DNA of 64,000 bases from Candidatus Anoxymicrobiaceae bacterium (lineage in GTDB: Bacteria > Actinomycetota > Geothermincolia > Fen-727 > Anoxymicrobiaceae), in NCBI GenBank assembly GCA_036845225.1, contig DAIUEJ010000007.1:6578-70577 (forward strand). Direction: 5' to 3'. Shown piece by piece: positions 6,972 through 63,742 of this stretch. The notes beneath the pieces are model-generated. The model ran no database searches, was not told where the DNA came from, and saw only the letters and a list, made by a program, of their open reading frames with translations. Every line of letters begins with the position of its first letter. The stretch's first letter is position 1. The position numbers and the translations under genes are program-made.

Positions 6972-7100
6972 GATACTGGCCGAGAGGTCGGTCTATAGAG
7001 GCAAGTAGGCTCAGGACTTTCTCGTATTGAGGGAATTCGGGCCGGACTCTCGAACTTGTTCTTCGAGAACGGCACATCGGCATCTTCCGCATCCGGGGGT

Positions 7101-9728
7101 ATGAACACCGTGGCAGTCGCCTCAGACGACGAACGACGCGCGATCGAGAAGCTAGAAGCGACCAATGCCGGAGCCGGCCTGTCTTCCGGCGAGGCTGCGG
7201 CAAGGTTGGCCGCCTTAGGGCCCAACCGCCTGGTGGAAGAGCGTCGAATAACCTTCCTTGCCATCCTCTGGGAAGAAGTGCGCGAGCCCATGATTCTGTT
7301 GCTCTTCGTCGTCGCCATCTTCTACAGCATCTGGGGACAGCTCCAGGACACCATAACGATCGTCGTAGTCATCGCTCTGCTGATCCTCGCGGAGGTGCTG
7401 AACGAGTTCAGGGCGAAGCGGGCCATAGCGGCTCTACGGAAGTTGTCCTCCCCGGAAGCGCCAGTGATTCGTGACGGTGAGTTTCGCCAGATACCTACCG
7501 CCGACCTCGTCCCTGGCGACCTGCTTCTCCTGCGGGTTGGTGAAAGGATCGGTGCCGACGCGCGCCTCATAGATTCGGCGGGCCTGGAGGTGGACGAGTC
7601 CACGCTCACTGGCGAGTCTTTCCCCGTCGGGAAGGACGAGCGGGCGAAAGTCCCGGAAGATGCGCCGCTTGGCGACCGAGTGGCTTCGGTGTTCGCGGGG
7701 ACAGTTGTCACCAGGGGAAAAGGGCGGGCCGTCGTCACCGCGACCGGCATGGACACCGAGCTCGGCCACATCGCCGGGTTGACCCGTGCCGTGAAAGAGC
7801 CCAAGACAAGACTGCAGCTTGCAATGAAGCAACTCGCAGGCTGGCTGGTCTGGGTGGCAGTGGGCTTCAGCGTTGTGATACCGGCAATCGGGATCGCGCA
7901 AGGCAAGCCCACGAAGACGATGATCCTGACCGGTCTGGGGCTGGCCTTTGCGACCATCCCGGAGGAGCTCCCGATTGTGATCACCATGGTGCTCGGGCTC
8001 GGCTCCCTGCAGCTCTCCCGGCATAACGCCCTGGTGAAGAGGCTGCGTGCGGCCGAGACACTCGGCAGTGTCACGGTGATCGCGACGGACAAGACGGGCA
8101 CGCTGACGGAGAACAGGATGACGATCAAACACCTGCTCACCGCATCCGGGTCGCAGGACTTCGCAGACAAACCTGTTACGCCGGTCGCTCGCAAGATGCT
8201 CGAGATCGGGGTCCTGGTGAACGACGTCGAGGCAACGGACGAAGGCGGAGGCCAGTCGCTGGTCGGTGACCCCATGGAGGTCGCCTTGATAGAGGGCGCC
8301 GAGGGCGCCGGGGTCACCGCGGCCGGCATCCGTTCCCGCTTCAAGATAACGGATGACTTCGAGTTCGATACGCGGCGCAAGGTCATGTCCGTGGTTGTGG
8401 ACTCCGACTCCAGGCGACAGGTGATGCTCAAGGGCGCCCCGGAGTCAGTGATTGACAGGTCAGTCGAGATCCTCGAGGACGATGGCCCCAGGCGCCTCGA
8501 GCCGGCGGAGCGGGAGACTATTATGTCGGAGATCGACGCCATGGCCGCCGAGGGTCTTCGGGTGGTCGCCTTCGCCAGCAAGGACCTGGCGCCTGGATTG
8601 CACCCGTATCGAGACGAGGCGGAGACCGGCCTGACTTTCGTGGGGGCAGCCGGTTTCTTCGACCCGCCACGGTCCGACGTCCCCGAGGCGGTCCGCGCAT
8701 GCAACACGGCGGGGATTCGCGTGATGATGATAACCGGGGACCACGCGTCGACGGCTGCTGCGGTGGCCAGGGAGATCGGGCTGGCATTCGATGATGGGGT
8801 GGTGACAGGCGCGGAGCTCGACGCGATGGACGATGAAACGCTCCGCGAGACGGTGGACACCAGGTCCGTTTTTGCTCGCGCGACGCCCGAACACAAGCTG
8901 CGGATAGTACGGGCTCTCCGTGAGAACGGCATGACGGTGGCAGTGACAGGCGATGGGGTGAACGACGCCCCCGCGTTGAGGGAAGCCGACATAGGCGTGG
9001 CGATGGGCGCGACGGGCACGGACGTTGCGAGAGAAGCCGCGGACATGATATTGACAGACGATAATTTCTCGACCATCGCCTATGCAGTCGGCCAGGGGCG
9101 GAAGCTCTTCGACAACCTCAGCAAGGGCGTGCGCTTCTACCTGGCGGTAAAGGTAGCCCTCGTTCTCATCTTCATCGTGCCGACCATCCTGTCCCTGCCC
9201 TTCCCCTTCGCACCGATCCAGATAGTGATTCTCGAGCTGTTCATGGACCTCGCCGCGTCGGCTTCTTTCGTCGCCGAGCCTGCCGAGAAGAGGATCATGT
9301 CGAGACCGCCGCGCGATCCTGCCGCAAGGTTCATGGACAAACCCATGCTGGAGACCATCGCCGCCGGAGCGATCTCCCTCTTCGCCGCGGTCACAACCGT
9401 CTATCTCCTGGCATATTACATAGTGGGCGGGCCCAAGACAGCGGGTTCTGCCGCATTTGCCACGTGGATGATAGGGACTGTGGCTCTGGCCTACAACACG
9501 AGGTCGAGAGAGCCACTCGCTTCAATCGGGTTCCTCACGAACAAGGTCATGGTCGCCTGGAGCGTCGCATCGATAGGGTTCCTAGTGCTCGCGATCAATA
9601 CACCGGGCCTTCAGGACGCGTTCAAGCTGACGGCTATTTCAGGGGCGCTGTGGGGGCTGGCAATCGGGGCCGCGTTGCTCTTCACTTCCTGGCTGGAACT
9701 CCTCAAGCTGGTCACTGCCAGGTCATGA
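7101..9728 (+). CDS. Cation-transporting P-type ATPase (type II-like)
   Basis: TGES, PEELP, DKTGTLT, MITGD and TGDGVNDAPAL motifs. Confidence 0.95.
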   Translation: MNTVAVASDDERRAIEKLEATNAGAGLSSGEAAARLAALGPNRLVEERRITFLAILWEEVREPMILLLFVVAIFYSIWGQLQDTITIVVVIALLILAEVLNEFRAKRAIAALRKLSSPEAPVIRDGEFRQIPTADLVPGDLLLLRVGERIGADARLIDSAGLEVDESTLTGESFPVGKDERAKVPEDAPLGDRVASVFAGTVVTRGKGRAVVTATGMDTELGHIAGLTRAVKEPKTRLQLAMKQLAGWLVWVAVGFSVVIPAIGIAQGKPTKTMILTGLGLAFATIPEELPIVITMVLGLGSLQLSRHNALVKRLRAAETLGSVTVIATDKTGTLTENRMTIKHLLTASGSQDFADKPVTPVARKMLEIGVLVNDVEATDEGGGQSLVGDPMEVALIEGAEGAGVTAAGIRSRFKITDDFEFDTRRKVMSVVVDSDSRRQVMLKGAPESVIDRSVEILEDDGPRRLEPAERETIMSEIDAMAAEGLRVVAFASKDLAPGLHPYRDEAETGLTFVGAAGFFDPPRSDVPEAVRACNTAGIRVMMITGDHASTAAAVAREIGLAFDDGVVTGAELDAMDDETLRETVDTRSVFARATPEHKLRIVRALRENGMTVAVTGDGVNDAPALREADIGVAMGATGTDVAREAADMILTDDNFSTIAYAVGQGRKLFDNLSKGVRFYLAVKVALVLIFIVPTILSLPFPFAPIQIVILELFMDLAASASFVAEPAEKRIMSRPPRDPAARFMDKPMLETIAAGAISLFAAVTTVYLLAYYIVGGPKTAGSAAFATWMIGTVALAYNTRSREPLASIGFLTNKVMVAWSVASIGFLVLAINTPGLQDAFKLTAISGALWGLAIGAALLFTSWLELLKLVTARS

Positions 9729-9848
9729 TGTGCTTGCCAGCTCCACAAGGATTCGCGTGACGTCCTCTGACGTTCGCAGGTCATCCCGCGACACGATCTC
9801 TATGCCGTTCTCCTCGAGGACCCGCAGTGGCCGGCTTTCGGCGAGCCA
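9723..9848 (-). pseudogene. Possible headless 3' gene remnant
   Basis: Frame WLAESRPLRVLEENGIEIVSRDDLRTSEDVTRILVELASTS* starts right after the TAG in the repeat arm (9849-9851); no start codon. Confidence 0.35.
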
Positions 9849-9880
9849 CTAAACTTCTTGGGGTCAGACCCCTTTTTGTA
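9849..9880. repeat. GGGGTCAGACCCC palindromic element
   Basis: CTAAACTTCTT-GGGGTCAGACCCC(9860-9872)-TTTTTGTA. Confidence 0.9.
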
Positions 9881-10215
9881 TCGCCGTAACCCAGCGACTT
9901 CGCCAGGCCTGCCATCTTCTTGACGACGAGGCCCAGGCCCGCCCGCCTGACCACGGGCCCCCTCCAGCTCACCATCAGTTTCTTCGTGAACTCCTGGGTC
10001 GCCCTGGCCTTGCTCTCGGTGATGATGTTCTGGATGGGTATGCCGATGATCCCCTCGACGTTGGCGAACAGCTCGTTGGTCCCCTCGACGTCGGCGAGCA
10101 CCATGCGGTGTTCGGGGTCTCGCGCCTCGGCGATGGTCCCGCTGGAGTTCCAGGTGAGGCTCTTTGCTGTCCGCTTGGAGACGCCGCATGTACCGCAGAC
10201 CTGTGTGCCGCTCAA
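9880..10215 (-). pseudogene. Truncated N-terminal fragment of a CxxC-GV...W-type hypothetical (V4R-like) gene
   Basis: AGGAGG SD + TTG 10215, MSGTQVCGTCGVSKR...LTWNSSGTI...GYGD, then the frame runs into the repeat (TKRGLTP). Confidence 0.65.
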
Positions 10216-10252
10216 CTGATCCCCTCCTGCTAGGTGCACGCGGATAATTCTA

Positions 10253-10483
10253 TCACTGCGCCGGTTGTGTTCCCCTTCGCGCGGAGTTGATGACATCGCA
10301 GGCGCGCCGGACGTTGTTCTTGAAGGAGGCGATCGACTTCTCCTGGAAGACGCCGCCTTCGGTGTACTGGATGTCGAGGACGTCCATCAGCGCGATGGGC
10401 GAAGGGTGAGGATACACCTGCACGGAGGTCATCGCCTCGTACGGTATCTGGAACGGGAGGTCCGACCCGGCTGCCCGCTTAAG
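10253..10483 (-). pseudogene. Headless 3' gene fragment
   Basis: Protein-like frame LKRAAGSDLPFQIPYEAMTSVQVYPHP...SARRGTQPAQ* begins at the arm of the 10489 repeat; no convincing start or RBS. Confidence 0.5.
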
Positions 10484-10510
10484 AAAAAGGACCCGACCCC
10501 AGGAAGTTAA
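10478..10510. repeat. Palindromic element variant GGACCCGACCCC
   Basis: CTTAAGAAAAA-GGACCCGACCCC-AGGAAGTTAA; near-identical to the 13248-13277 copy and to the reverse complement of 46778-46810. Confidence 0.85.
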
Positions 10511-11163
10511 GCGTCTCGCTGGGCTATTTCAAGGGCTTTCTTGTCGAGCTGCTCGGAGTATTCCTTCCATGTCGACATGTCTTCGGCGCTCCCGCGGAAG
10601 ATCACAAAGCGGCACGTTTCCGCGCCCGCGGGGATCGTCTGGGTGAAGCGAACCTGCCAGTCCATCCAGCCCAGCTCTTTCGCCGCGTCGAGCATTCCCT
10701 GGACGAAGTTCCTCTGGACGCGGCAGTCGAAGGCACTGTAGCAGTCCTGGTGCGGGCACCAGATGATGTGGAAGCTGACCTCGTCCTCGGAGTCGATGCT
10801 CGGCTCCTCGAGCGACGCGTAAGCGATACGGTTGATGACGGTCGCGAAGAAGCTGGCGAGCTCCGCCTCGGTGAGCCCCTCCGGCCTCTCGAGCCCGTCG
10901 AGCATCTGCCTGCCGACGTCCAGGCCCACCTTCCTTATGGCTTCGCAGACGACTCGCTGCCCGTCCTCGCCGAATTCGCGCTCGCACGCCTTGAGTATGC
11001 CTATCACCGCCATGGCCTGCATGGTCCCCCATTGCCAGAGCACGGCGGGGTCGAAGTCGGTCTTACCCAGGACCTCCTCGCGAAGCCGTGCCACGCCCTC
11101 GGCATACGGCTGGTTGAACTCGAATTCTTTCCAGGCGGGCTCGTCGCGGCGCTCCCAGTGCAT
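10507..11163 (-). CDS. V4R-like / ATC-hydrolase-like protein
   Basis: WCPHQDCY...DCRVQRNFVQG and FTQTIPAGAETCRFVI; GGAG SD before ATG 11163. Confidence 0.7.
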   Translation of the reverse strand: MHWERRDEPAWKEFEFNQPYAEGVARLREEVLGKTDFDPAVLWQWGTMQAMAVIGILKACEREFGEDGQRVVCEAIRKVGLDVGRQMLDGLERPEGLTEAELASFFATVINRIAYASLEEPSIDSEDEVSFHIIWCPHQDCYSAFDCRVQRNFVQGMLDAAKELGWMDWQVRFTQTIPAGAETCRFVIFRGSAEDMSTWKEYSEQLDKKALEIAQRDA

Positions 11164-11205
11164 TGCAGGACTCCTTCTCTGATGCCGATGCGCGTAAATC
11201 ATCGA

Positions 11206-11255
11206 GCCGGCGGGACGCCAGCGCTACGAACAGGCCGGCGGGACGCCAGCGCTAC
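11206..11255. repeat. GTAG-type REP doublet (tandem)
   Basis: GCCGGCGGGACGCCAGCGCTAC at 11206-11227 and 11234-11255; reverse complement begins GTAG. Confidence 0.85.
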
Positions 11256-11283
11256 GTCTTTCATTCTGACGGCGCGACGGCCG

Positions 11284-13104: not shown

Positions 13105-13225
13105 GATGCACCCCCAGGGCTAGAACGAGTCTTTCAACGTAGTGATATCGTCATCCGGCTCAAAGATTATAACCTGCCAGGCAAGGGCGCCACACGGGTC
13201 ACGCGGTCGGTCGGGATGCTCAAGT

Positions 13226-13277
13226 GGGGTCTGACCCCGGTGGCGCACTTAAGGAAAAGGACCTGACCCCGGAAAGT
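13226..13277. repeat. Two palindromic elements in tandem
   Basis: GGGGTCTGACCCC (13226-13238)-GGTGGCGCA and GGACCTGACCCC (13259-13270). Confidence 0.9.
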
Positions 13278-13413
13278 AAAGTGAAGTTTCCTTTGCCCGG
13301 CTGGCGGGGAGTTGGTAAGATAATCCTAGGCAGCATGGGGGCGACGGAGCATTCACCGGCGACGCGCGTCCCTCGCCACTAAGTGGCTGGTCACCTGATA
13401 AGGGAGGAATACG

Positions 13414-13974: not shown

Positions 13975-14082
13975 AACACGGCACCAGTCAAAATAATGTG
14001 AGGCGGACATGGGCAACCCGTGTGCCCGCTCGACGGACCGGGTTGCAGCCCATGCCGGCATCACCATCAAAGGGAGGTATAC

Positions 14083-15246
14083 ATGGCGTACGATCGAGAT
14101 CTTGCCTTCATCTACAGGAACCCGACCAAGATCGTCTTTGGCGAGAACACCGTAAATGACGCGGGCATAGAGGTGTCCGAGCTCGGCTGCAGCAAGGCGT
14201 TTATTGTGACCGATCCCGGCGTGGTGGCGGCCGGACTGGTAGAGAGAGTCCAGAAGGCGCTCGGGTCGAAGTTCGTCGGCATCTACGACAAGTGCATCCA
14301 AGACTCCGGCGTGCACATCATCAATGAGGCGTCCGCGCTCGCAAAAGAGGCCGGCGCCGACTGCCTCGTCAGCGTCGGCGGGGGCAGCACCATCGACACG
14401 GCCAAGGGCATGGCCGTCCTCATCAAGGAGGGTGGCAAGCTGGAGGACTACGCCGGCTTCCAGCTCCTGACCCGGCCCCAGACACCGCACGTAGTTGTGC
14501 CGACCACGGCCGGGACCGGCAGCGAGGCCACCATGACGGCGGTCGTCAAGGACTGGGACAGGCACCAGAAGATGCTCTTCTCAGACACCAACATGATCCC
14601 GAACGTAGGGATACTCGACCCGACGATAGTGGCCGGGCTTCCTAAGGGATTGACGGCGACCACGGGCATGGACGCGTTCACGCACGGGGTAGAATCGATA
14701 CATACACTCCAGGCGTCGCCCATCGCCGACGCGATGGCTCTCCAGTCCATCAGGCTGATCTACGAGAACCTCCCGAAGTGCGTCGAGGACGGCAGCGACC
14801 TGCTCGCGCGGGGACAGCAGCAGTGCGGGGCTACCATGGCGGGAATCGCGTTCGATAACGCGCAGGTGGGCCTGCCGCACGCGCTCGCGCATTCTCTCGG
14901 CGGGCTTTTCAAGGTGCCTCACGGGCTCGCCAACAGCATCGTGCTTCCGTACAGCATGCAGTTCAACCTGGAGGAGTCCGCCGACCGCTACGCGCTCATC
15001 GCGCGGGTGATGGGCCTGGACGTAAAAGGCATGAGCGACGTGGAGGCGGGACAGGCGGCGATAGACGCGGTCTTCGCGTTTACCAAGAAGCTCGGTATCC
15101 CGCAGAAGCTGAGCGAAGCGGGAGTGCCGGAGGAAGGGCTGATCGAGGTCGCGGAGCTCGCGCTCTCCGATGGCGCGATAGTCTACAACCCGACGCTTAT
15201 CTTCGAGACCGACCAGATAATGGAAGTGTTGAAGGCTGCGTACTAG
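14083..15246 (+). CDS. Iron-containing alcohol dehydrogenase
   Basis: GGGSTID, PTTAGTGSE, DAFTH, and GLPHALAH...HGLAN metal ligands; GGAGG SD before ATG 14083. Confidence 0.93.
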   Translation: MAYDRDLAFIYRNPTKIVFGENTVNDAGIEVSELGCSKAFIVTDPGVVAAGLVERVQKALGSKFVGIYDKCIQDSGVHIINEASALAKEAGADCLVSVGGGSTIDTAKGMAVLIKEGGKLEDYAGFQLLTRPQTPHVVVPTTAGTGSEATMTAVVKDWDRHQKMLFSDTNMIPNVGILDPTIVAGLPKGLTATTGMDAFTHGVESIHTLQASPIADAMALQSIRLIYENLPKCVEDGSDLLARGQQQCGATMAGIAFDNAQVGLPHALAHSLGGLFKVPHGLANSIVLPYSMQFNLEESADRYALIARVMGLDVKGMSDVEAGQAAIDAVFAFTKKLGIPQKLSEAGVPEEGLIEVAELALSDGAIVYNPTLIFETDQIMEVLKAAY

Positions 15247-15280
15247 ACCTTCCAGGAATGAACAATGACCAGGGGGTAAC

Positions 15281-15703
15281 ATGAGCGAGCCCAATATCGA
15301 ACTGGCGCCGGACGTGGAGCCCGGCATGGCTTCCATGCTGGCGGACATGATAAAGACAAACCTGAAGGACAAGCCCGACAGGATGAAGGACTTCAACAAG
15401 CTGGAGGGGACGATCTGGATAACCGCGGAGGACGCGGAGACCGAGATGACGATGGTCTTCGAGAGCGGGAAGCTGACGGTCCACTCCGGCAAGATCGGCA
15501 AGCCGATACTTGAGATAACCACCGACGCTTCGACACTGATGGACCTCGCCAACATCGACATCAAGATGGGGATGCCCTACTACTTCGACGAGACCGGGCG
15601 CATGGTCATCAAGAAGCTCCTCAAGAAAGAGCTGAAGATCAAAGGCATGTTCGCCCACAACATGGCACTGACGCGGATGACTAAGATCATGTCGGTCAAG
15701 TAG
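15281..15703 (+). CDS. SCP2-like domain protein
   Basis: 140 aa; ...TMVFESGKLTV...ILEITTDASTLM...KKLLKKELKIKG, an SCP2-type C-terminus. Confidence 0.6.
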   Translation: MSEPNIELAPDVEPGMASMLADMIKTNLKDKPDRMKDFNKLEGTIWITAEDAETEMTMVFESGKLTVHSGKIGKPILEITTDASTLMDLANIDIKMGMPYYFDETGRMVIKKLLKKELKIKGMFAHNMALTRMTKIMSVK

Positions 15704-15741
15704 GCCCGAGAAGCCAGGCCCTTACGATCGGAGGACGTACG

Positions 15742-17604
15742 ATGTTCGGAAACACCGGCAAGGTGCTGGAAGTCGACTTGAGCTCCGGGCAGATCGAGAC
15801 GCTCGAGCTCGAGGAAGACATCTACAAGAAGTACATCGGTGGAGTGGGTCTGGCGGCAAAGCTGCTGTTCGACCGTGGCAACCTCGATGCGGACCCCCTG
15901 GACCCCGACACGCTGCTGATATTCGCCACGGGGCCGATGGCCGGCACGGGCATGTACGGCACGAGCCGCTTCTCGGTCGGCGCCCGCTCGCCTCTGACCG
16001 GCATCTGGGGGCAGGCGAGCTGCGGGGGAAACTTCGGGCCCGAGCTCAGCAGGTGCGGCTACGACGCGGTGATATTCAAAGGCAAGGCGGACAAGCCTGT
16101 CAGCCTCGTCATCGGTGACGAGACCGCCGAGATCGTGGACGCGGGCGACCTCTGGGGCAAGGACGTCTACGAGACGACGGACATCCTCAAGGAGAAGTAC
16201 GGCAAGCAGGAGAAGATACTCGCCATCGGCCCGGCGGCCGAGAACGGAGTCCTCTTCGGCAGCATCACCAACGATTACGGGCACCACTTCGGCCGCGCCG
16301 GCATGGGCACCGTGATGGCTTCCAAGAACCTCAAGGCGATAGCCGCGAAGGGCGACATGAAATCCGAGTTCGCGGACCCGGAGGGGTTCAAAGAGTTCTG
16401 GCAGAACACCGTCCGACCGCAGATCGAGGAGAATATCTTCTGCAATGCGCTCAAGGCTTTCGGCACCGCCGCGAACATGGAACTGAAGATGATGGAGGGC
16501 GACGTCCCGACCAGGAACTGGTCGGTCGGCTCGTGGATGGAAGGGCCGGAAACCCTGAGCGGTATCACTATGGCCGACACCATCAGGACGGACACCGCCT
16601 CATGCCGGGGTTGCGCAGTGAAGTGCAAGCCTGTGGTCAAGGTCGATGAAGGTCCCTATCAGACGCCCGAGGGACCGGGGCCGGAGTACGAGACGATCGG
16701 GACCTTCGGAACCATGATGATGAACCCGAGCCTGGAGGCCGTTGCGAAGGCGAACGACCTCTGCAACCGCCTGGGGATGGACACCATGACCTGCGGCTCG
16801 ACCATCGCGTGGGCGATGGACTGCTACGAGGCGGGCATCCTCAAGCCCGAAGATTACGACGGGATCAAGCTCGAGTTCGGCGACATCGACACGCCGCTGG
16901 CCCTGCTTCCAAAGATAGCCGCGAAGGAAGGGAAGCTCGCGCAACTGCTCGCCATGGGCTCCCGCAAGGCATCCACGGAGATAGACGCCGGCAGCGAGAA
17001 GTTCCTCACCGACAGCAAAGGGCTGGAGGCCGCGATGCACGACCCGCGATGCAACTGGGGCGACGGGCTCGCCTACGCGGTCTCGGTGCGCGGCGCGTGC
17101 CACGTCTCGAACGTGACCTTCCTCTGGGAGTGGGGCGCGATCGAGTACCCGGAGGTCGGGCTGGACATGCTCTTCCAGGCGCAGTCGGCCGAGCACAAGG
17201 CGTTCGGCACGGCGGTGACCACGGACATGGGCTCTATCTTCAACTCGGCGTGCTGGTGCGAGTTCCCCGGGGCGAGCCTGACGCTGACCCAGTGGGTTGA
17301 GGCGTTCAACCTGGTCGCGGGGTACGGCTACGACATCGACTCGATGATGGAAGCGGCCGCGCGCGTGTGGTTCCTGCAGCGCGCCCTCGGCAACATCTGG
17401 GGCGCGACCGGTGAGGACGACCGGATAGGCGAGAGGATCATGACGCCCGTGGACGACGGCATGATTGCCGGCTCGGTGCCCGACATGGAGACCATGCTCA
17501 AGGAGTTCTACGAGCTGCGCGGACTCTCCGCCGACGGCCGCCCTACTCGCGAGGCGCTGGCGAAGTACGGCCTCGAGGACGTCGCCGAGAAGCTCGGGGT
17601 CTGA
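15742..17604 (+). CDS. aor: Aldehyde:ferredoxin oxidoreductase family (tungstopterin)
   Basis: SPLTG, GRAGMGTVMASKNLKAI, CRGCAVKC, PEYET, GMDTMTCG and RGACH. Confidence 0.92.
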   Translation: MFGNTGKVLEVDLSSGQIETLELEEDIYKKYIGGVGLAAKLLFDRGNLDADPLDPDTLLIFATGPMAGTGMYGTSRFSVGARSPLTGIWGQASCGGNFGPELSRCGYDAVIFKGKADKPVSLVIGDETAEIVDAGDLWGKDVYETTDILKEKYGKQEKILAIGPAAENGVLFGSITNDYGHHFGRAGMGTVMASKNLKAIAAKGDMKSEFADPEGFKEFWQNTVRPQIEENIFCNALKAFGTAANMELKMMEGDVPTRNWSVGSWMEGPETLSGITMADTIRTDTASCRGCAVKCKPVVKVDEGPYQTPEGPGPEYETIGTFGTMMMNPSLEAVAKANDLCNRLGMDTMTCGSTIAWAMDCYEAGILKPEDYDGIKLEFGDIDTPLALLPKIAAKEGKLAQLLAMGSRKASTEIDAGSEKFLTDSKGLEAAMHDPRCNWGDGLAYAVSVRGACHVSNVTFLWEWGAIEYPEVGLDMLFQAQSAEHKAFGTAVTTDMGSIFNSACWCEFPGASLTLTQWVEAFNLVAGYGYDIDSMMEAAARVWFLQRALGNIWGATGEDDRIGERIMTPVDDGMIAGSVPDMETMLKEFYELRGLSADGRPTREALAKYGLEDVAEKLGV

Positions 17605-17635: not shown

Positions 17636-17911
17636 TTGAAGGTGCACGTCCGCTATGTCGGCCTGTTCGCGAAATACGTGGGCGAGCGGGAAAGAGACTT
17701 CGATCTGCCCGACGGCGCCACCGCGGACGACCTCCTCGGGCGGCTTGCTGACCAGTACAGGGAAACCCTCCCCGAAAGCTTCATGGACAAAGAGACCGGC
17801 CGGCTGCACAAGAGCGTCCGCCTGGCCGCCACCAGCGGCGCGATCGGACCGGAACAAGAGCTCAACGATGGCGACAACCTACTCGTATTGTTCACCCTCG
17901 CCGGCGGCTGA
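17636..17911 (+). CDS. MoaD/ThiS-family sulfur carrier
   Basis: Ubiquitin-like, about 91 aa, ends FTLAGG; follows aor; TTG/GTG start uncertain. Confidence 0.85.
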   Translation: MKVHVRYVGLFAKYVGERERDFDLPDGATADDLLGRLADQYRETLPESFMDKETGRLHKSVRLAATSGAIGPEQELNDGDNLLVLFTLAGG

Positions 17912-17973
17912 GTGTAAAACCGGTGCCAGGCACTTTCTTTTCACTTTGAAAAACGGGGGTCAGGCACTTTTTT
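17908..17973. repeat. Two palindromic element variants
   Basis: CTGAGTGTAAAACC-GGTGCCAGGCAC-TTTCTTTTCAC (36/37 identical to the reverse complement of 54553-54589), then AAAAAC-GGGGGTCAGGCAC-TTTTTT (matches 20716-20740). Confidence 0.9.
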
Positions 17974-18553: not shown

Positions 18554-18621
18554 TTGTTCATCGCGCCTCGGGTATAGAACTGTCGCGAATCATCATACCC
18601 GAACCGGGCGCGTCCACTGAT

Positions 18622-18742
18622 GCCGGCGGGACGCCGGCGCTACGGACGTAGAGCAGGAGGCCACATGCCGGCGGGACGCCGGCGCTACGAACACGCGGCG
18701 GGACGCCGGCGCTACGAAAGGATAGCGGGACGCCGGCGATAC
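18622..18742. repeat. GTAG-type REP array, 4 copies
   Basis: GCCGGCGGGACGCCGGCGCTAC at 18622 and 18667, and shortened or variant copies at 18695 and 18725. Confidence 0.85.
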
Positions 18743-18801
18743 GGACGTAGCCGTTGCTGATAGAATGCCCGTGTTGAAAGCGGCAAGCGGAGGATGCTTC
18801 G

Positions 18802-21113: not shown

Positions 21114-21136
21114 GGGTCTGACCCCAGAAAGTTTAG
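21114..21136. repeat. Palindromic element carrying the glycosyltransferase stop codon
   Basis: GGGTCTGACCCC-AGAAAGTTTAG; the same arm as the 9849-9872 copy. Confidence 0.85.
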
Positions 21137-22655: not shown

Positions 22656-22760
22656 GAAAATGCACCACTGGGGTCAGGCACCGGTGGTGCATTTCTGGAA
22701 GTCTGCGATCGTGCACGGAGAAAATGCACCACCGGTGCCTGACCCCAGTGGTGCGTTTTC
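22656..22760. repeat. Inverted doublet of palindromic elements (REPIN-like)
   Basis: GAAAATGCACCACT-GGGGTCAGGCACC-GGTGGTGCATTT and its inverted copy at 22720-22760 (38/39 identical), about 25-nt spacer. Confidence 0.92.
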
Positions 22761-23589: not shown

Positions 23590-23966
23590 TTCAATCCCCC
23601 CAACAGTCACGACAACTACCGATTGCGGCACATCCATCATTCGGCGCGGGGCCGGGCAATCCTGCGATGGCGCCGCAGGGGGGAAACCTTGACGTCCGTC
23701 ATGGAGCGACGATTTGCGCGCGGGTAGTATGCCGGTATGGAAAGAACGAGAAGGTGTACCAGATCACACGACGTAGACGGCCAGAAAAAGAATCTTCTCG
23801 TGAAGTAGGAGTCCGGATTTACAGGGTGAATAAAGCCCCAGAAGTAGAACCCGCGAACGCTAGAGACGACACCTGAGCAGACTTGTAGGCCAAGGTTTGC
23901 CGCTAGCGCTACGCAGGTCCGGTAAGTCAGGCACGTTTGTGCCAGGTTCAAAGGAGTTGGTTTTCC

Positions 23967-26900
23967 ATGCATCACTCGAGGAAACCCGCGACAAGGACGA
24001 TTGCCCCGATTCTCGCATTCCTTTTAGTTGCCGCCTTCTTCCTGGCAGGCGCGGGCCCGATCGCCGCGAAGCCGACGCCGGCCGCGCCGAAGGCTCAAAC
24101 GCAGCCGGCGGCCAACCCGGCGCAATCACCTGTGAGAACTCAGGACTCGAAACGCACAACGGCCGCGGACAGACAGGCCGCGGCGGACCGTGCGCAGGCT
24201 CAGGGACTGACACCGGGGGTGGCGAAGAGCGGCGGCGCGGTGCCGACGCCTGGAGGCGTACCTGACTACTTCGGCCCTTATCCTAACTACGCAAACAGCC
24301 CCCTGCCCACGGCGATTGCCGCGTTTCCTTATCCGACGTTCTACTTCGCTGAGGGCACGACCCGGCCGAATTTTGAGACTTACTTCACTATCCAGAACCC
24401 GGGCACCAAGACGGCAAACGTCAGGCTGACCTACATGAGAGGGAATGGCCAGAACGCAGTCGTTACTGTGGCTGTTCCAAAGAACACCAGGTCCACCATC
24501 AATCCGGTGAGCACCCTGGGCAGCGCGGACGATGCCGCTCACGACTTCAGCACCAAGGTCGAGTCCCTCAACAAAGTGCAGGTCATAGTCGAGCGCCCGA
24601 TGTATTTCAACTACAAGGGTGTCTGGACAGGCGGGTCCGACGCGGTGGGGGCAACCGCCACGGCGTCTGCGTTCTATTTCGCGGAAGGGACGTGCCGGCC
24701 CAACTTCGATGCTTACTTCACGATTCAGAACCCCGGAAACAATAACGCGATCATCCAGCTGACCTACATGAAGGGTGACGGCACAGTAGTCACGCAGGGC
24801 TTTGGCGTGACAGCCCATACGCGCGGAACGGTACACCCCGCGGACACGCTGGGGGTCGGCGACGACGCGGCCCATGACTTCAGCACATCGATAGTCTGCA
24901 CCAACGGTCAGAAGATAGTCGCCGAGCGGCCACAGTACTTCAACTACAAGGGGGTCTGGACCGGAGGCCACGACGTCGTAGGCGCCACGGCGGGCGCGAA
25001 GCAATACTACTTCGCGGAGGGCACCAGCCGGCCGAACTTCATCCCTTACCTCACGATACAGAACCCGAACGCGGGCTCGGTGCCCGTCAAGATAACCTAC
25101 TTCATGGCTGACGGAACGAGGAAAACGCAGAACATGACGCTCGCTCCTCATTCAAGAAGCACAGCCATTCCCTCGGACATCATAGGCTCGGGCGACGTAG
25201 GGCATGACTTCAGTTCAAAAGTCGAAAGCACGAACGGGAAGAACATCATCGTCGAGCGGCCGATGTACTTCAACTACAACAACGCCTGGACCGGCGGCTC
25301 GGACGTGATGGGCGCGACCGCTTCCGCGCCGGCATACTACTTCGCGGAGGGCACCAGCCGGCCCAACTTCGACCCGTATCTTTGCATACTCAACCCGGGA
25401 GACACGGTCGCCAACCTGACCATCACATACATGAAGGGTAACTCAACGACCTCGACTCAGCTCATTTCAGTGCCTGCTTTTTCGCGAGGTACAATCTCAA
25501 TTCGTGAGAAGACGGGGACCGGGAATGACGCGGCCCACGACTTCAGCATCCGTGCCGAGTGCACGAACGGCCAGCGGGTCATAGTCGAGCGGCCGATGTA
25601 CTTCAACTACAACGGCGTATGGAACGGCGGTCACGATGCGGTCGGGCTTGCCTATCAGGCGGTCGGCGTCCAGACGGGCACCGGCGTCAGGAAGTTCGTC
25701 GATTCGCTCCCCGGACTCGGGGCGGCGAACGCCAACGACCTCGGGCAGTATATCCCGGTGGCCGTTCCCGACAAGACGAGCTTCCCCGGCTCGGACTACT
25801 ACGAGATACAGCTCGGGCAGTACAGGGAAAAACTCCACAAAGACCTTCCGTCGACCTTGCTGCGCGGCTACCGGCAGACCAACAGCTCGAATCCATCCGT
25901 GACGAAGTTCAGCTACCTGGGGCCGACGATCATCGCCCAGAAGGGCCGCCCGGTGAGGGTCAAGTTCACGAACAGCTTGCCGACCGGCGCGGGAGGAAAC
26001 CTGTTCATCCCCGTCGATACGACGGTCATGGGCGCGGGAATGGGCCCTGATGGAGTGAACGGCTACACCGAGAACCGCGCGGTCATCCACCTTCACGGCG
26101 GTAACACCCCGTGGATCAGTGACGGGACCATGCACCAGTGGATCACTCCGGCCGGGGAGACCACGCCGTATCCCCAGGGAGTCAGCGTGCAGAGCGTCCC
26201 CGACATGCCCCAGCCGACGGTTGGAGACGGGACCGAGACGTTCTACTACACAAACCAGCAGAGCGCCAGGTTGATGTTCTACCACGACCATGCGTACGGG
26301 ATAACCCGCCTGAACGTCTATGCGGGCGAAGCGGCGCCCTATCTGCTGCAGGACTCGACCGAGACCTCGCTCATCAACAGCAAGTCCATCCCGGCCGACC
26401 AGATCCCCCTGGTGATCCAGGACAAGACCTTCGTACCCGCCCCGGCGCAGCTCGCGGCCGAGGACCCGACATGGGACACGAGCAAATACGGAGGCAAGGG
26501 CAACCTCTGGTTCCCGCACGTATACATGCCAAACCAGAATCCTGGTAGCATCGATGGCGCCAACGCAATGGGGCGCTGGGATTACGGCCCGTGGTTCTGG
26601 CCGCCGTTCACAGGGATCACCAACGGACCGGTCGCGAACCCCTACTACGATCCTGTCAACGCACCCTGGGAGCCGAAGGTGATTCCGGGGACGCCCAATC
26701 CATCGATAGTACCTGAGGGGTTCATGGATACGCCCCTGGTCAACGGGACCGCTTATCCCTACGTGAAGGTGGGGCCCAAGGCATACCGGTTCCGGATACT
26801 GAACGCCTCTAACGACCGTACACTCAACCTCCAGATGTACTTCGCGAAGTCGAACGGGCAGATGTGGAAGTCGAACGGGACGCTCACCGACGGCGATGCC

Positions 26901-29195
26901 GGCGAAGTCGCCATGGTGCCCGCGGTTCCCAACAACGGCCTGCCGGCCAGCTGGCCGACAGACGGCCGTGACGGAGGCGTGCCTGACCCGGCCTCGAGCG
27001 GACCGGCCATGGTGCAGATCGGCAACGAAGGGGGCTTCCTCCCGCAGGCGGCCGTACTGCCCAACACGCCGGTAGGATACATCTATAACCGCAGGGACAT
27101 CACGGTCCTGAACGTGTCCAACAAGACGCTGATGCTGGGGCCGGCCGAGAGGGCCGACGTCATCATCGACTTCTCCAAGATCCCCGACGGCACCAAGCTC
27201 ATCATGTACAACGACGCTCCGGCTCCGGTACCGGCGTTCGACCCGCGCATCGACTACTACACGGGCGGACCGGACCTGACCTCTTCAGGTGGAGCGCCCA
27301 CCACGCTTCCGGGCTACGGCCCGAACACGAGGACGGTCATGCAATTCCAGGTGTCCTCGAGCGTGAAGACCGGGATGACGGGATTCAACGTGAACACGCT
27401 GATGAACCACCTGCCGGCAGCCTACGCGACGTACCAGGAGAAGCCGATAGTGCCGAACGCGGCCTACAACGCGGCGTTTAACGCGGCCTACCCTGCCGAT
27501 TCCTACTCGAGGATCCAGGACACCACGAAGGACTTCTTCAATGGCCCGCTTGCCGGCCTTGCCGTGACGAACATGGGAAGCGGCTATACCTCGGCACCGG
27601 GAGTCAACATCACCGGAGGCGGAGGGACGGGCGCTACAGGAGTGTCCGAGATATCGGGTGTCACATCGATTGCGATAACCAACGGGGGGAGCGGCTATAC
27701 CGTTCCTCCGGACATCGGCTTCACTGGCGGAGGAGGCGGTTCGGGAGCCGCGGCTACCGCGCTGATCTCGGGTGTCACGGGATTCACCATTACGAACTTT
27801 GGAACGGGCTATACCTCGCCTCCTGATGTCACAATCACTGGCGGAGGCGGGTCGGGGGCCACCGCGGTCGCTACCGTGGCGAACGGGTCAATCACGGCTG
27901 TCAACCTCACGAACGGCGGCAGCGGTTACTCGACGCCACCGACCGTCACGTTCACAGGCGGGGGTATCGGCCCCAACGGCGCCGCCGCAACCGCCAATAT
28001 CGCGGTCGGCTCGGTTACGGGGATCATCATCACCGACTCGGGCGGCAACTACACGGTCGCGCCCGGTGTGGCCTTCTCCGGGGGCGGCGGCGGTATAAAC
28101 GCGGCCGCGAATGCGTCGATAACGGTGGGCGCGGTCACCTGGGTGAAACTCACCAACCCGGGCAACAACTACTCCTCGGCGCCAACTGTGGCGCTGTCCG
28201 GAGGAGGAGGCGCCAATGCCACGGCGGTAGCGTTGCCGATCCACATGGACCTGACGCCGAAGGCGATCCAGGAGCTGTTCGATCCGTTCTACGGGCGGAT
28301 GAACGCTCAGTTGGGTGTCGAAATACCCAACACTACGATGATCACGCAGACGACTATCCCATACTTCGATACCGATCCCCCGACGGAGCTCATCAAGAAC
28401 TCCGACGCGGCGCAGCCTATCGGCTCGCTGGCGGACGGGACCCAGATCTGGAAGATCACACATAACGGTGTGGACACGCACGCCATCCACTGGCACATGT
28501 TCAACGTCCAGTTGATCAACCGCGTCGGATGGGACGGAATGGTGAAACCGCCGGACGCGAACGAAGTCGGTTGGAAAGAGACCGTGCGGATGAACCCGCT
28601 CGAGGACGTGATCGTGGCTCTCAGGCCGATCAAGCCCAACATCCCGTGGGACATCCCTAACAGCATACGGTTGCTCGACCCGACGATGCCACTGAACAGC
28701 ACGATTAACTTCACGAGCATGGACCCGGCAGGTCAGCCCGCGCCAGTCCTCAACCACGAGATAAACTACGGCTGGGAGTACGTGTGGCACTGCCACCTGC
28801 TCGGCCACGAGGAGAATCTCATGATGCGCCCGATGTCCTTCGGAGAGGCGCCGATAGCGGCCAGCGGCCTGAGCGGCGCCGGACCGGCGGGCGGAGTCGC
28901 GCTCTCGTGGACCGACAACTCCAAGAACGAGACCAACTGGACGATCATGCGGTCAACGAGTCTGACCGGGCCGTTTGCCAAGATCGACCAGGTGGCATCG
29001 ACAACGGGGCCTGCCACAGGCGGGACGATAAACTACACCGACACCACGGCGGCAGCCGCGACGACTTACTACTACCAGATAATCGCAAACAACATCATCG
29101 GGGATACCACACCTTACACGGCGCCGGTCGTCGGGTATCCGAACATGTCGATGGATGCGACGGCGTCCAACACGGCGACGGTGGTCGTGCCCTGA
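23967..29195 (+). CDS. Very large secreted multicopper oxidase (OmpB/CotA-like) with 4 N-terminal ~111-aa repeats, 6 Gly-rich repeats and a C-terminal FN3-like domain
   Basis: Signal peptide; Cu motifs HLHG (~26088), YHDH (~26280), HAIHWH (~28479), WHCHLLGHEENLM (~28785); LSWTDNSKNET...YYYQI at the C-terminus. Confidence 0.92.
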   Translation: MHHSRKPATRTIAPILAFLLVAAFFLAGAGPIAAKPTPAAPKAQTQPAANPAQSPVRTQDSKRTTAADRQAAADRAQAQGLTPGVAKSGGAVPTPGGVPDYFGPYPNYANSPLPTAIAAFPYPTFYFAEGTTRPNFETYFTIQNPGTKTANVRLTYMRGNGQNAVVTVAVPKNTRSTINPVSTLGSADDAAHDFSTKVESLNKVQVIVERPMYFNYKGVWTGGSDAVGATATASAFYFAEGTCRPNFDAYFTIQNPGNNNAIIQLTYMKGDGTVVTQGFGVTAHTRGTVHPADTLGVGDDAAHDFSTSIVCTNGQKIVAERPQYFNYKGVWTGGHDVVGATAGAKQYYFAEGTSRPNFIPYLTIQNPNAGSVPVKITYFMADGTRKTQNMTLAPHSRSTAIPSDIIGSGDVGHDFSSKVESTNGKNIIVERPMYFNYNNAWTGGSDVMGATASAPAYYFAEGTSRPNFDPYLCILNPGDTVANLTITYMKGNSTTSTQLISVPAFSRGTISIREKTGTGNDAAHDFSIRAECTNGQRVIVERPMYFNYNGVWNGGHDAVGLAYQAVGVQTGTGVRKFVDSLPGLGAANANDLGQYIPVAVPDKTSFPGSDYYEIQLGQYREKLHKDLPSTLLRGYRQTNSSNPSVTKFSYLGPTIIAQKGRPVRVKFTNSLPTGAGGNLFIPVDTTVMGAGMGPDGVNGYTENRAVIHLHGGNTPWISDGTMHQWITPAGETTPYPQGVSVQSVPDMPQPTVGDGTETFYYTNQQSARLMFYHDHAYGITRLNVYAGEAAPYLLQDSTETSLINSKSIPADQIPLVIQDKTFVPAPAQLAAEDPTWDTSKYGGKGNLWFPHVYMPNQNPGSIDGANAMGRWDYGPWFWPPFTGITNGPVANPYYDPVNAPWEPKVIPGTPNPSIVPEGFMDTPLVNGTAYPYVKVGPKAYRFRILNASNDRTLNLQMYFAKSNGQMWKSNGTLTDGDAGEVAMVPAVPNNGLPASWPTDGRDGGVPDPASSGPAMVQIGNEGGFLPQAAVLPNTPVGYIYNRRDITVLNVSNKTLMLGPAERADVIIDFSKIPDGTKLIMYNDAPAPVPAFDPRIDYYTGGPDLTSSGGAPTTLPGYGPNTRTVMQFQVSSSVKTGMTGFNVNTLMNHLPAAYATYQEKPIVPNAAYNAAFNAAYPADSYSRIQDTTKDFFNGPLAGLAVTNMGSGYTSAPGVNITGGGGTGATGVSEISGVTSIAITNGGSGYTVPPDIGFTGGGGGSGAAATALISGVTGFTITNFGTGYTSPPDVTITGGGGSGATAVATVANGSITAVNLTNGGSGYSTPPTVTFTGGGIGPNGAAATANIAVGSVTGIIITDSGGNYTVAPGVAFSGGGGGINAAANASITVGAVTWVKLTNPGNNYSSAPTVALSGGGGANATAVALPIHMDLTPKAIQELFDPFYGRMNAQLGVEIPNTTMITQTTIPYFDTDPPTELIKNSDAAQPIGSLADGTQIWKITHNGVDTHAIHWHMFNVQLINRVGWDGMVKPPDANEVGWKETVRMNPLEDVIVALRPIKPNIPWDIPNSIRLLDPTMPLNSTINFTSMDPAGQPAPVLNHEINYGWEYVWHCHLLGHEENLMMRPMSFGEAPIAASGLSGAGPAGGVALSWTDNSKNETNWTIMRSTSLTGPFAKIDQVASTTGPATGGTINYTDTTAAAATTYYYQIIANNIIGDTTPYTAPVVGYPNMSMDATASNTATVVVP

Positions 29196-31174: not shown

Positions 31175-31187
31175 GGGGTCAGGCACC
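31175..31187. repeat. Isolated element core GGGGTCAGGCACC
   Basis: Exact core in the divergent intergenic region; arms degenerate. Confidence 0.7.
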
Positions 31188-31623: not shown

Positions 31624-31660
31624 CACCCCCACCCCGACCCTCCCCCCTCAAGGGGGAGGG
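31624..31660. repeat. CCCTCCCCC/GGGGGAGGG palindromic repeat
   Basis: 37 nt identical to the reverse complement of 44181-44217. Confidence 0.88.
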
Positions 31661-42187: not shown

Positions 42188-42307
42188 ACGTCGTTCGTTT
42201 TCCACTTTTCTTTACACTTTTTCAGCGCGAACAATCTGCGCCACTGGGGTCTGACCCCGCTGGCGCAGCCTCGAGAAGTGTAAAGAAAAGTGGAAAACGA
42301 ACGACGT
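42188..42307. mobile_element. 120-bp MITE-like unit: 32-bp perfect terminal inverted repeats around a GGGGTCTGACCCC hairpin
   Basis: ACGTCGTTCGTTTTCCACTTTTCTTTACACTT (42188-42219) is the exact reverse complement of 42276-42307; the centre holds TGCGCCACT-GGGGTCTGACCCC-GCTGGCGCA (42237-42267). Confidence 0.75.
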
Positions 42308-44180: not shown

Positions 44181-44217
44181 CCCTCCCCCTTGAGGGGGGA
44201 GGGTCGGGGTGGGGGTG
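44181..44217. repeat. CCCTCCCCC/GGGGGAGGG palindromic repeat (second copy)
   Basis: Identical inverted copy of 31624-31660; a degenerate partial copy precedes it at about 44148. Confidence 0.88.
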
Positions 44218-54514: not shown

Positions 54515-54552
54515 CGACGCGAACGCGCAAGGGGCCGCTATTGCGTCAAAAA

Positions 54553-54589
54553 GTGAAAGGAAAGTGCCTGGCACCGGTTTTACACTCAG
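54553..54589. repeat. Palindromic element variant GTGCCTGGCACC
   Basis: 36/37 identical to the reverse complement of 17908-17944. Confidence 0.9.
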
Positions 54590-63704: not shown

Positions 63705-63742
63705 AAAAACGCAAAAAGGGGTCAGACCCCTTTTTGCATTTT
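63705..63742. repeat. GGGGTCAGACCCC element
   Basis: AAAAACGCAAAAA-GGGGTCAGACCCC(63718)-TTTTTGCATTTT. Confidence 0.92.

Follow-up and report, generated by a model that had tools for sequence, protein, structure and literature searches.

The question raised by the locus described here is whether short palindromic repeats mark, or made, the points at which genes were broken. The locus lies in a 64,000-nucleotide (nt) stretch of the Candidatus Anoxymicrobiaceae bacterium assembly GCA_036845225.1 (contig DAIUEJ010000007.1, positions 6,578 to 70,577), referred to below as the window, within a 778-bp interval between a P-type cation ATPase gene and a gene with a hydrolase-like product. This interval holds two ~35-nt copies of a palindromic element, which we call the 9860 and 10489 elements after their positions, and three minus-strand open frames. 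An earlier reading of the DNA (the original prediction) took the three frames for gene fragments broken at the elements, through deletion or recombination mediated by the elements or, alternatively, through an assembly error. A deletion associated with an element is supported for one of the three pieces, the gene that begins at TTG 10215, in which the loss starts 0 to 1 nt from an element; no parent gene was found for the other two pieces.

The start codon of the 10215 gene (10213 to 10215, minus strand) is preceded, as read from the sequence, by a Shine-Dalgarno motif, AGGAGGGG, 5 nt upstream (10221 to 10228, minus strand). An exhaustive HMMER search recovered 114 relatives of its protein, most of them 345 to 377 amino acids (aa) long. 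Residues 1 to 113 of the window protein, hereafter the stub, align with residues 1 to 114 of the ~350-aa relatives, and HMMER returned no further alignment. The same boundary was found with hhalign against a 37-member family alignment (probability 99.9, columns 2 to 114, nothing beyond). Family members are ~350 aa long and contain two tandem modules with invariant cysteines (C7, C10 … C200, C203), and the stub falls outside full-length membership. When the family profile was run against the six frames of the 64-kb window, it found the stub piece alone (profile positions 3 to 114); no frame holds the second module or any other part of the missing two thirds. The missing part that the original prediction had proposed to look for is thus visible in relatives and absent from the window. 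By these comparisons the 10215 gene is confirmed as a true 5′ fragment, which comprises codons 1 to 113 (9881 to 10215, minus strand) of a ~351-aa Zn-ribbon plus V4R/Bet3-like family gene and has lost about two thirds of its length.

The family has no sequence-level match in Pfam, NCBIfam, or PDB, and its fold was approached by modeling. An AlphaFold2 model of the full-length member P0005 (mean predicted local distance difference test score, 89.9; predicted template modeling score, 0.89) shows two tandem modules, each made up of a Zn-ribbon, a helical part, and a beta-beta-alpha-beta-beta part. In Foldseek searches both modules match TRAPP Bet3, YslB, and H-NOX chains with probabilities of 0.97 to 1.0, at modest template modeling scores of 0.4 to 0.57 on the target. 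The family therefore resembles V4R, TRAPP Bet3, and H-NOX-like fold proteins in both modules and differs from them by the extra N-terminal Zn-ribbon on each. In the model the breakpoint meets the beginning of strand E112-119, the first beta-strand of module 1; the cut at residue 113 is accordingly predicted to fall inside the fold of that module and at no domain boundary. This two-module Zn-ribbon/V4R-like family, for which Pfam and NCBIfam hold no model, seems to be undescribed. P0005 and its relatives occur at loci L004 to L007, L017, and L086, and at L086 the full-length member and a homolog of the hydrolase-like gene are divergently oriented neighbors. The stub's closest relative (69% identical; locus L002, 2136 to 2546) is itself cut, at codon ~128; at that locus a radical-SAM-like gene, recognized by eye from its N terminus, starts 6 nt past the stop codon of the truncated relative.

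At the DNA level, homology of the 10215 gene to L002 (79%) and to L004 (77%) ends in both cases at window position 9881. The 9860 element, a type C copy, occupies positions 9843 to 9880 (plus strand; …ACTAAACTTCTTGGGGTCAGACCCCTTTTTGTA), and the segment common to type C copies runs to ~9880. On these alignments the homology breakpoint and the edge of the element coincide within 0 to 1 nt, far tighter than chance placement in the interval would be expected to produce. The claim that a Shine-Dalgarno-bearing gene had been cut at this element holds in that the gene is a fragment and its homology stops at the element; it does not hold for the reading frame, which is not closed there and reads through the element (TKRGLTPRSL…). 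The stub frame is open across it (…GYGD-TKRGLTPRSLVARRK…), and in most strains the palindromic repeat is translated in frame within the open reading frame (ORF) (…GYGD-TKRGLTPRSLVARRKPATA-…). Because the AT-rich elements hold most of the local stop codons in this GC-rich DNA, coincidences between frame boundaries and elements are partly trivial; the homology breakpoint of the 10215 gene is the sole nontrivial one. Two features of this copy bear mention. It was considered whether the element is truncated at its right end, and this was rejected, as the copy at 21120 has the same 'TTGTA' end. The gene-side half of the 9860 copy is 19 nt identical to a 'type B' copy at 63718 and the other half is type C, which hints at a hybrid element, although five copies are too few to press the point.

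Junctions at repeats could arise if an assembler had joined unrelated loci there, as the original prediction allowed. Seven other assemblies, from different pipelines and samples, carry the same gene order and identical junctions at both elements, with 98.6 to 99.3% identity: JGI 3300025575 (L001), Ga0209746 (L008), Ga0209538 (L009), JGI 3300022818 (L090), Logan SRR30681573 (L003), ENA ERZ27294308 (L088), and ENA ERZ27262903 (L089). Furthermore, exact matches between the elements and other parts of the window reach at most 19 nt and 13 nt, lengths that would not lead an assembler astray. An assembly artefact is thus extremely improbable, and that claim falls. The locus is a real structure common to the population.

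Downstream of codon 113 the ORF leads through the element into a 'tail' of 32 codons (VLEENGIEIVSRDDLRTSEDVTRILVELASTS) plus a stop (9723 to 9820, minus strand), which forms the 3′ end of a 163-aa chimeric ORF in most strains. In the close relatives P0001 and P0003 the stub ORF runs on into this tail and ends at the stop at 9723 to 9725; no relative of P0001 was found among GTDB representative genomes. The tail had been proposed as part of a second headless gene fragment (9723 to 9848). An open frame does exist there, but in the seven other assemblies it is the 3′ continuation of the stub ORF, and no parent gene was found for it. The window differs from those assemblies in a G-run at 9821 to 9823 (minus strand), GGG versus GG, a +1 frameshift that moves the ORF stop from 9723 to 9725 to 9781 to 9783. 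A homopolymer error was suspected here from a second +1 unique to the window at ~6896, and it is disfavored: the +G allele is also on record as P0118 and P0128 and is present on two other contig records (20.7 kb and 78.8 kb), one of which may be the window's own source, and run-length variants occur in short-read k141 assemblies. The extra G is probably genuine, if not certainly so.

The reach of this variation was assessed in a 90%-identity cluster (21 sequences) and in further contigs aligned at the DNA level. The 163-aa form is the majority allele. The window encodes a 144-aa form through its extra G, and a different 144-aa form is found in L088 and L089 (short-read k141 contigs), with an added C in the element core. 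In L090 a GGG/CCCCC core creates an in-frame TGA and a 116-aa product, and in L008 a nonsense change in the tail yields 157 aa. G-run and C-run lengths in the core of the 9860 element thus differ among strains, and there are four independent indel or nonsense alleles past codon 113. Since these frameshifts and nonsense changes vary by strain, everything past codon 113 is unconstrained and free to shift frame.

The composition of the tail is mildly coding-like: its codon-usage score is 0.33, compared with an average of 0.54 for real genes and a 95th percentile of 0.25 for wrong frames. Two origins for it were rejected. That the tail is the family's own C terminus, brought in by an internal deletion, is contradicted by hhalign, which found no match, and by a family C-terminus hidden Markov model (HMM), whose score for the tail was no better than those of 2000 shuffles; a resemblance noted by eye ('EDGDLxVEV') was dropped. 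That the tail continues the gene from codon 114, as it would after a pure insertion, is contradicted by the lack of any HMM signal and of any blastn signal at word size 7. A search of 5.8 billion proteins returned no tail homolog, and tblastn against 87 related loci matched the same species alone. The tail may be a relic of a lost gene convergent with the ATPase gene, or it may be open by chance.

The stub itself behaves differently from its variable extension. Among the eight sequences, codons 1 to 113 contain 8 synonymous and 6 nonsynonymous variable sites, giving a ratio of nonsynonymous to synonymous polymorphism (pN/pS) of 0.24 (binomial P = 0.009), and no single-base indels. The intact neighbors have pN/pS values of 0.24 to 0.27 (hydrolase-like gene) and 0.19 (ATPase gene), and the stub is free of frameshifts in 20 of the 21 members of the cluster. 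By these measures the 113-codon stub looks still to be under purifying selection.

The remaining frame, which was predicted to be a headless fragment (10253 to 10483) beginning at an arm of the 10489 element, fared differently from the 10215 gene. The frame is indeed open, and it is open from 10528 to 10253, across the element, with an ATG of its own at 10432 that has GAGG at short spacing before it. From this ATG runs a 59-codon ORF (P0004; 10253 to 10432, minus strand) that is called as a gene in other assemblies; it is preceded by an in-frame open leader with no start codon (10433 to 10476, minus strand). Both have coding-like codon usage (0.48 for the ORF and, from a sample of 15 codons, 0.45 for the leader), and the ORF has 2 synonymous and 1 nonsynonymous variable sites. 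Protein searches and tblastn against the 87 related loci found no relatives of the 59-codon ORF outside this species. More generally, relatives of the two pieces other than the 10215 gene were sought and none were found: the 85-aa and 41-aa pieces have no match in Pfam, NCBIfam, PHROGs, or the 5.8-billion-protein search, nor, for the 85-aa piece, among PDB sequences, and tblastn on the related loci returned the same species alone. The 59-codon ORF is probably either an orphan small gene or an old relic, with no sign of being a fragment, and its contact with the 10489 element is what would be expected for any frame beside an intergenic, stop-rich repeat.

The 10489 element is a type C copy at 10477 to 10513, the minus strand of which reads CGCTTAACTTCCTGGGGTCGGGTCCTTTTTCTTAAGCG. 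The TAA stop (10507 to 10509) of the hydrolase-like gene comes from the TTAAC end of this copy; likewise, at 21133, the CTAAAC of an element closes a 527-aa gene. When the copies were checked for the terminal inverted repeats and constant-length target site duplications of miniature inverted-repeat transposable elements, TTAA…TTAA and CGCTTAA/TTAAGCG were seen on the two sides of the 10489 copy, a pattern that the other four type C copies do not have.

That the palindromic elements are real was borne out by their numbers in the window. The core GGGGTCNGNCCCC (GGGGTC(N)G(N)CCCC-type) has 25 strand-matches versus 4.0 expected, a count reached in 0 of 100 shuffles, and the type C subtype AACTTYYTGGGGTCRGRYCC has 5 copies versus 0.06 expected, among them 9852 to 9871 (plus strand) and 10489 to 10508 (minus strand). 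Other subtypes are long perfect palindromes, such as TGCGCCACYGGGGTCWGACCCCGGTGGCGCA and AAACGCAAAAAGGGGTCAGACCCCTTTTTGC, and these show strong folding (z = −7.1 and −5.5 for types A and B), whereas the two type C copies of this locus fold about as well as shuffled sequence (z about 0). Compared with a rough gene map, the copies checked lie between predicted genes, the exception being the 9860 copy within the chimeric ORF; the core match at 31175 may fall within a predicted ORF. A GGGGTCAGACCCC palindrome also lies ~15 nt past the stop of a 71%-identical hydrolase-like gene in a relative (L017, 5660 to 5720; L018, 1650 to 1662), with different arms (TGTCGCATTGGGGTCAGACCCCGATGTCGCA), so that the core has a wider distribution than any single type of arm. 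The exact type C pattern was found in no GTDB representative genome, Rfam has no family for the elements, and no published paper containing the core sequence was found. The GGGGTCAGACCCC-cored repeat family seems to be undescribed.

Several further repeats were seen in the window. Inverted doublets occur at 22656 to 22760 and 49103 to 49199, with a spacer of exactly 27 nt and 97% and 100% complementarity, respectively. A 32-nt perfect inverted pair (42188 to 42307) encloses the element at 42246. Two long-range inverted pairs were found, one of 37 nt and 100% identity (CACCCCCACCCCGACCCTCCCCCCTCAAGGGGGAGGG; 31624 to 31660 with 44181 to 44217, 12.5 kb apart) and one of 40 nt and 98% (17908 to 17947 with 54550 to 54589, 36.6 kb apart). 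A second repeat family, at 11204 to 11274 and 18620 to 18761, reads GTAG-CGCCGGCG-TCC-CGCCGGC in reverse complement; its GTAG head and 7-bp GC hairpin give it the look of a classical repetitive extragenic palindromic (REP) sequence. Two of its copies lie just upstream of the hydrolase-like gene, and four are arranged in tandem-like fashion at 18.6 kb (spacing of 45, 27, and 27).

The palindromic elements resemble REP sequences and the doublets known as REPINs in being short (30 to 40 nt), GC-cored, present in many copies, almost always intergenic, and often located right after stop codons, and in that some of those in the window form inverted doublets with a fixed 27-nt spacer. REP sequences are established join points of recombination and deletion. 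The GGGGTCAGACCCC families differ from them in the weak folding of type C copies and in having no 5′ GTAG head, the feature of a REP that its REP-associated tyrosine (Y1) transposase (RAYT) recognizes; in the window such a head belongs to the separate family. No RAYT or other transposase was present among the 14 of about 58 window proteins that were scanned with Pfam. Rickettsia palindromic elements (RPEs) offer another parallel, as the repeat here lies within an ORF and is translated in frame in most strains. RPEs are 100 to 150 bp long and are inserted into otherwise intact, still functional genes; here, by contrast, the element marks the loss of two thirds of the gene, strains differ in the frame that crosses it, and homology to the family exists on one side of the repeat but not on the other, where the tail is unlike family residues 114 onwards. 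Finally, AAAAAGGGGTCAGACCCCTTTTT copies look like intrinsic terminators, being perfect hairpins with A-run and T-run flanks between convergent genes. They differ in that the arms of the element family are conserved further than termination would call for and that the family is also found in divergent promoter regions (13212 to 13282). At 9860 to 9872 (plus strand) a 5-bp stem followed by TTTTT gives a weak plus-strand terminator score downstream of the ATPase gene, the minus strand has no T-run, and terminator-like matches in the region show no excess (3 found versus 3.5 expected from shuffles).

The history that we favor, and consider probable, is that of a locus remodeled by an element-associated deletion into a constrained stub with a junk 3′ extension. 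A REP-like element, at its edge or within it, would have been one endpoint of a rearrangement, most likely a deletion, that took away codons 114 to about 351 and left codons 1 to 113 fused directly to the element. Ribosomes starting at TTG 10215 would then read through the element into flanking DNA until they met a stop in the applicable frame; the resulting extension would be junk, its frame and length dependent on the strain, while the stub would be kept under purifying selection. That the element caused the deletion we infer from the coincidence of breakpoint and element edge. It could have done so by recombination between two element copies, one within the gene and one downstream, across their shared 13-nt core; by deletion adjacent to an inserted element; or by illegitimate deletion stimulated by a hairpin. 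Several observations count against this history. The ends of the element were defined from five copies, and the estimate of selection on the stub draws on 14 variable sites. The truncated relative in L002 has no element nearby, so that truncation near codon 113 needs no element. In L003 a 43-nt deletion between direct repeats lies within the stub, and at least this strain may have lost it. Similarity searches for the source of the tail gave no match. In addition, the searches recovered no relative that keeps the gene whole between the hydrolase-like and ATPase genes. Among 80 loci with relatives of the hydrolase-like gene, the ATPase gene or the same neighbors occur only in L008 and L009, which belong to this species; relatives at 58 to 81% identity have other neighbors.

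The L002 case also fits a different order of events, in which an ordinary deletion truncated the gene first and a mobile or terminator-like palindrome settled at the junction later, as a marker of the scar and not its cause. Such elements do sit at gene ends elsewhere: the 231-aa hydrolase-like gene and the 527-aa one both take their TAA stops from within the end of an element. However, this order requires that the element edge fell within 0 to 1 nt of the breakpoint by chance or by a targeting rule, and the eight assemblies show no presence/absence polymorphism of the element; we regard it as unlikely. More improbable still is an origin of the stub by partial duplication, as a copy of the 5′ part of a full-length paralogue elsewhere in the genome. 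P0005, which is full length and 66% identical, does come from metagenomes with contig accessions in the same JGI number series as the locus, but nothing places it in the same genome, the 64 kb contain no paralogue, and a DNA identity of 77% is too low for a recent copy. A further reading is compatible with deletion as the origin of the stub and differs on its present function only: the 113-codon gene may be a working stand-alone small protein, consisting of a Zn-ribbon and helices, for which the element provides just a 3′ boundary or terminator region. A pN/pS equal to that of intact neighbors, a strong Shine-Dalgarno sequence with a conserved start, the near absence of frameshifts in the cluster, and the independent truncation in L002 near the same point all speak for such a protein. 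On the other hand, the predicted cut falls inside a compact fold, ahead of its beta-sheet, the short family members in databases look broken or like pieces at contig ends, and L003 has its deletion in the stub. A stand-alone function is therefore a possible but doubtful addition to the deletion history.

Both genes that bound the interval are intact. The ATPase gene (7056 to 9728, plus strand; 890 aa), identified from the ORF list and from the Pfam families of an identical gene in L003, has a TGA stop (9726 to 9728) that abuts the minus-strand stop at 9723 to 9725. The hydrolase-like gene (10507 to 11202, minus strand; 231 aa) has a weak ATC_hydrolase-like match, and its C terminus is of the usual length compared with relatives. 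Elsewhere in the window, the genes at 14020 to 17604 encode an Fe-alcohol dehydrogenase, two SCP2-domain proteins, and an aldehyde:ferredoxin oxidoreductase, a set that points to an anaerobe. The extra C at ~6896 is found in the window alone (CCCC versus CCC in L003, L008, and L009); it lies within a 4Fe-4S protein gene and shifts the frame of the final ~35 codons; in the other assemblies the product has 339 aa and its C terminus is more plausible. A 1752-aa ORF (23937 to 29195) contains ~4 tandem copies of a 330- to 333-nt unit at 24337 to 25646, with 63 to 74% identity to the reference copy, which probably represent a repeated ~111-aa domain.

The phenomenon is a fairly ordinary one, a genome scar left by rearrangement at a REP-like repeat in element and protein families that seem not yet to have been described, and it alters no general principle. 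It provides a clean, population-sampled case of a gene cut at a repeat, in which the stub is constrained and the new tail is drifting. It also matters for annotation: palindromes that carry most of the local stop codons lead gene callers to chimeric or 'headless' ORFs, and this locus is on record as proteins of 59, 63, 116, 144, 157, 163, 171, and 190 aa. Rather more speculatively, and on balance we doubt it, the repeat-associated truncation may have made a new, selectively maintained mini-protein, built from the Zn-ribbon and helices of a V4R/Bet3-like sensor module, with a C terminus that is supplied by the repeat and varies by strain. If that were true, the independent and similar stub in L002 would suggest that two-module proteins have repeatedly given rise to stand-alone N-terminal domains.

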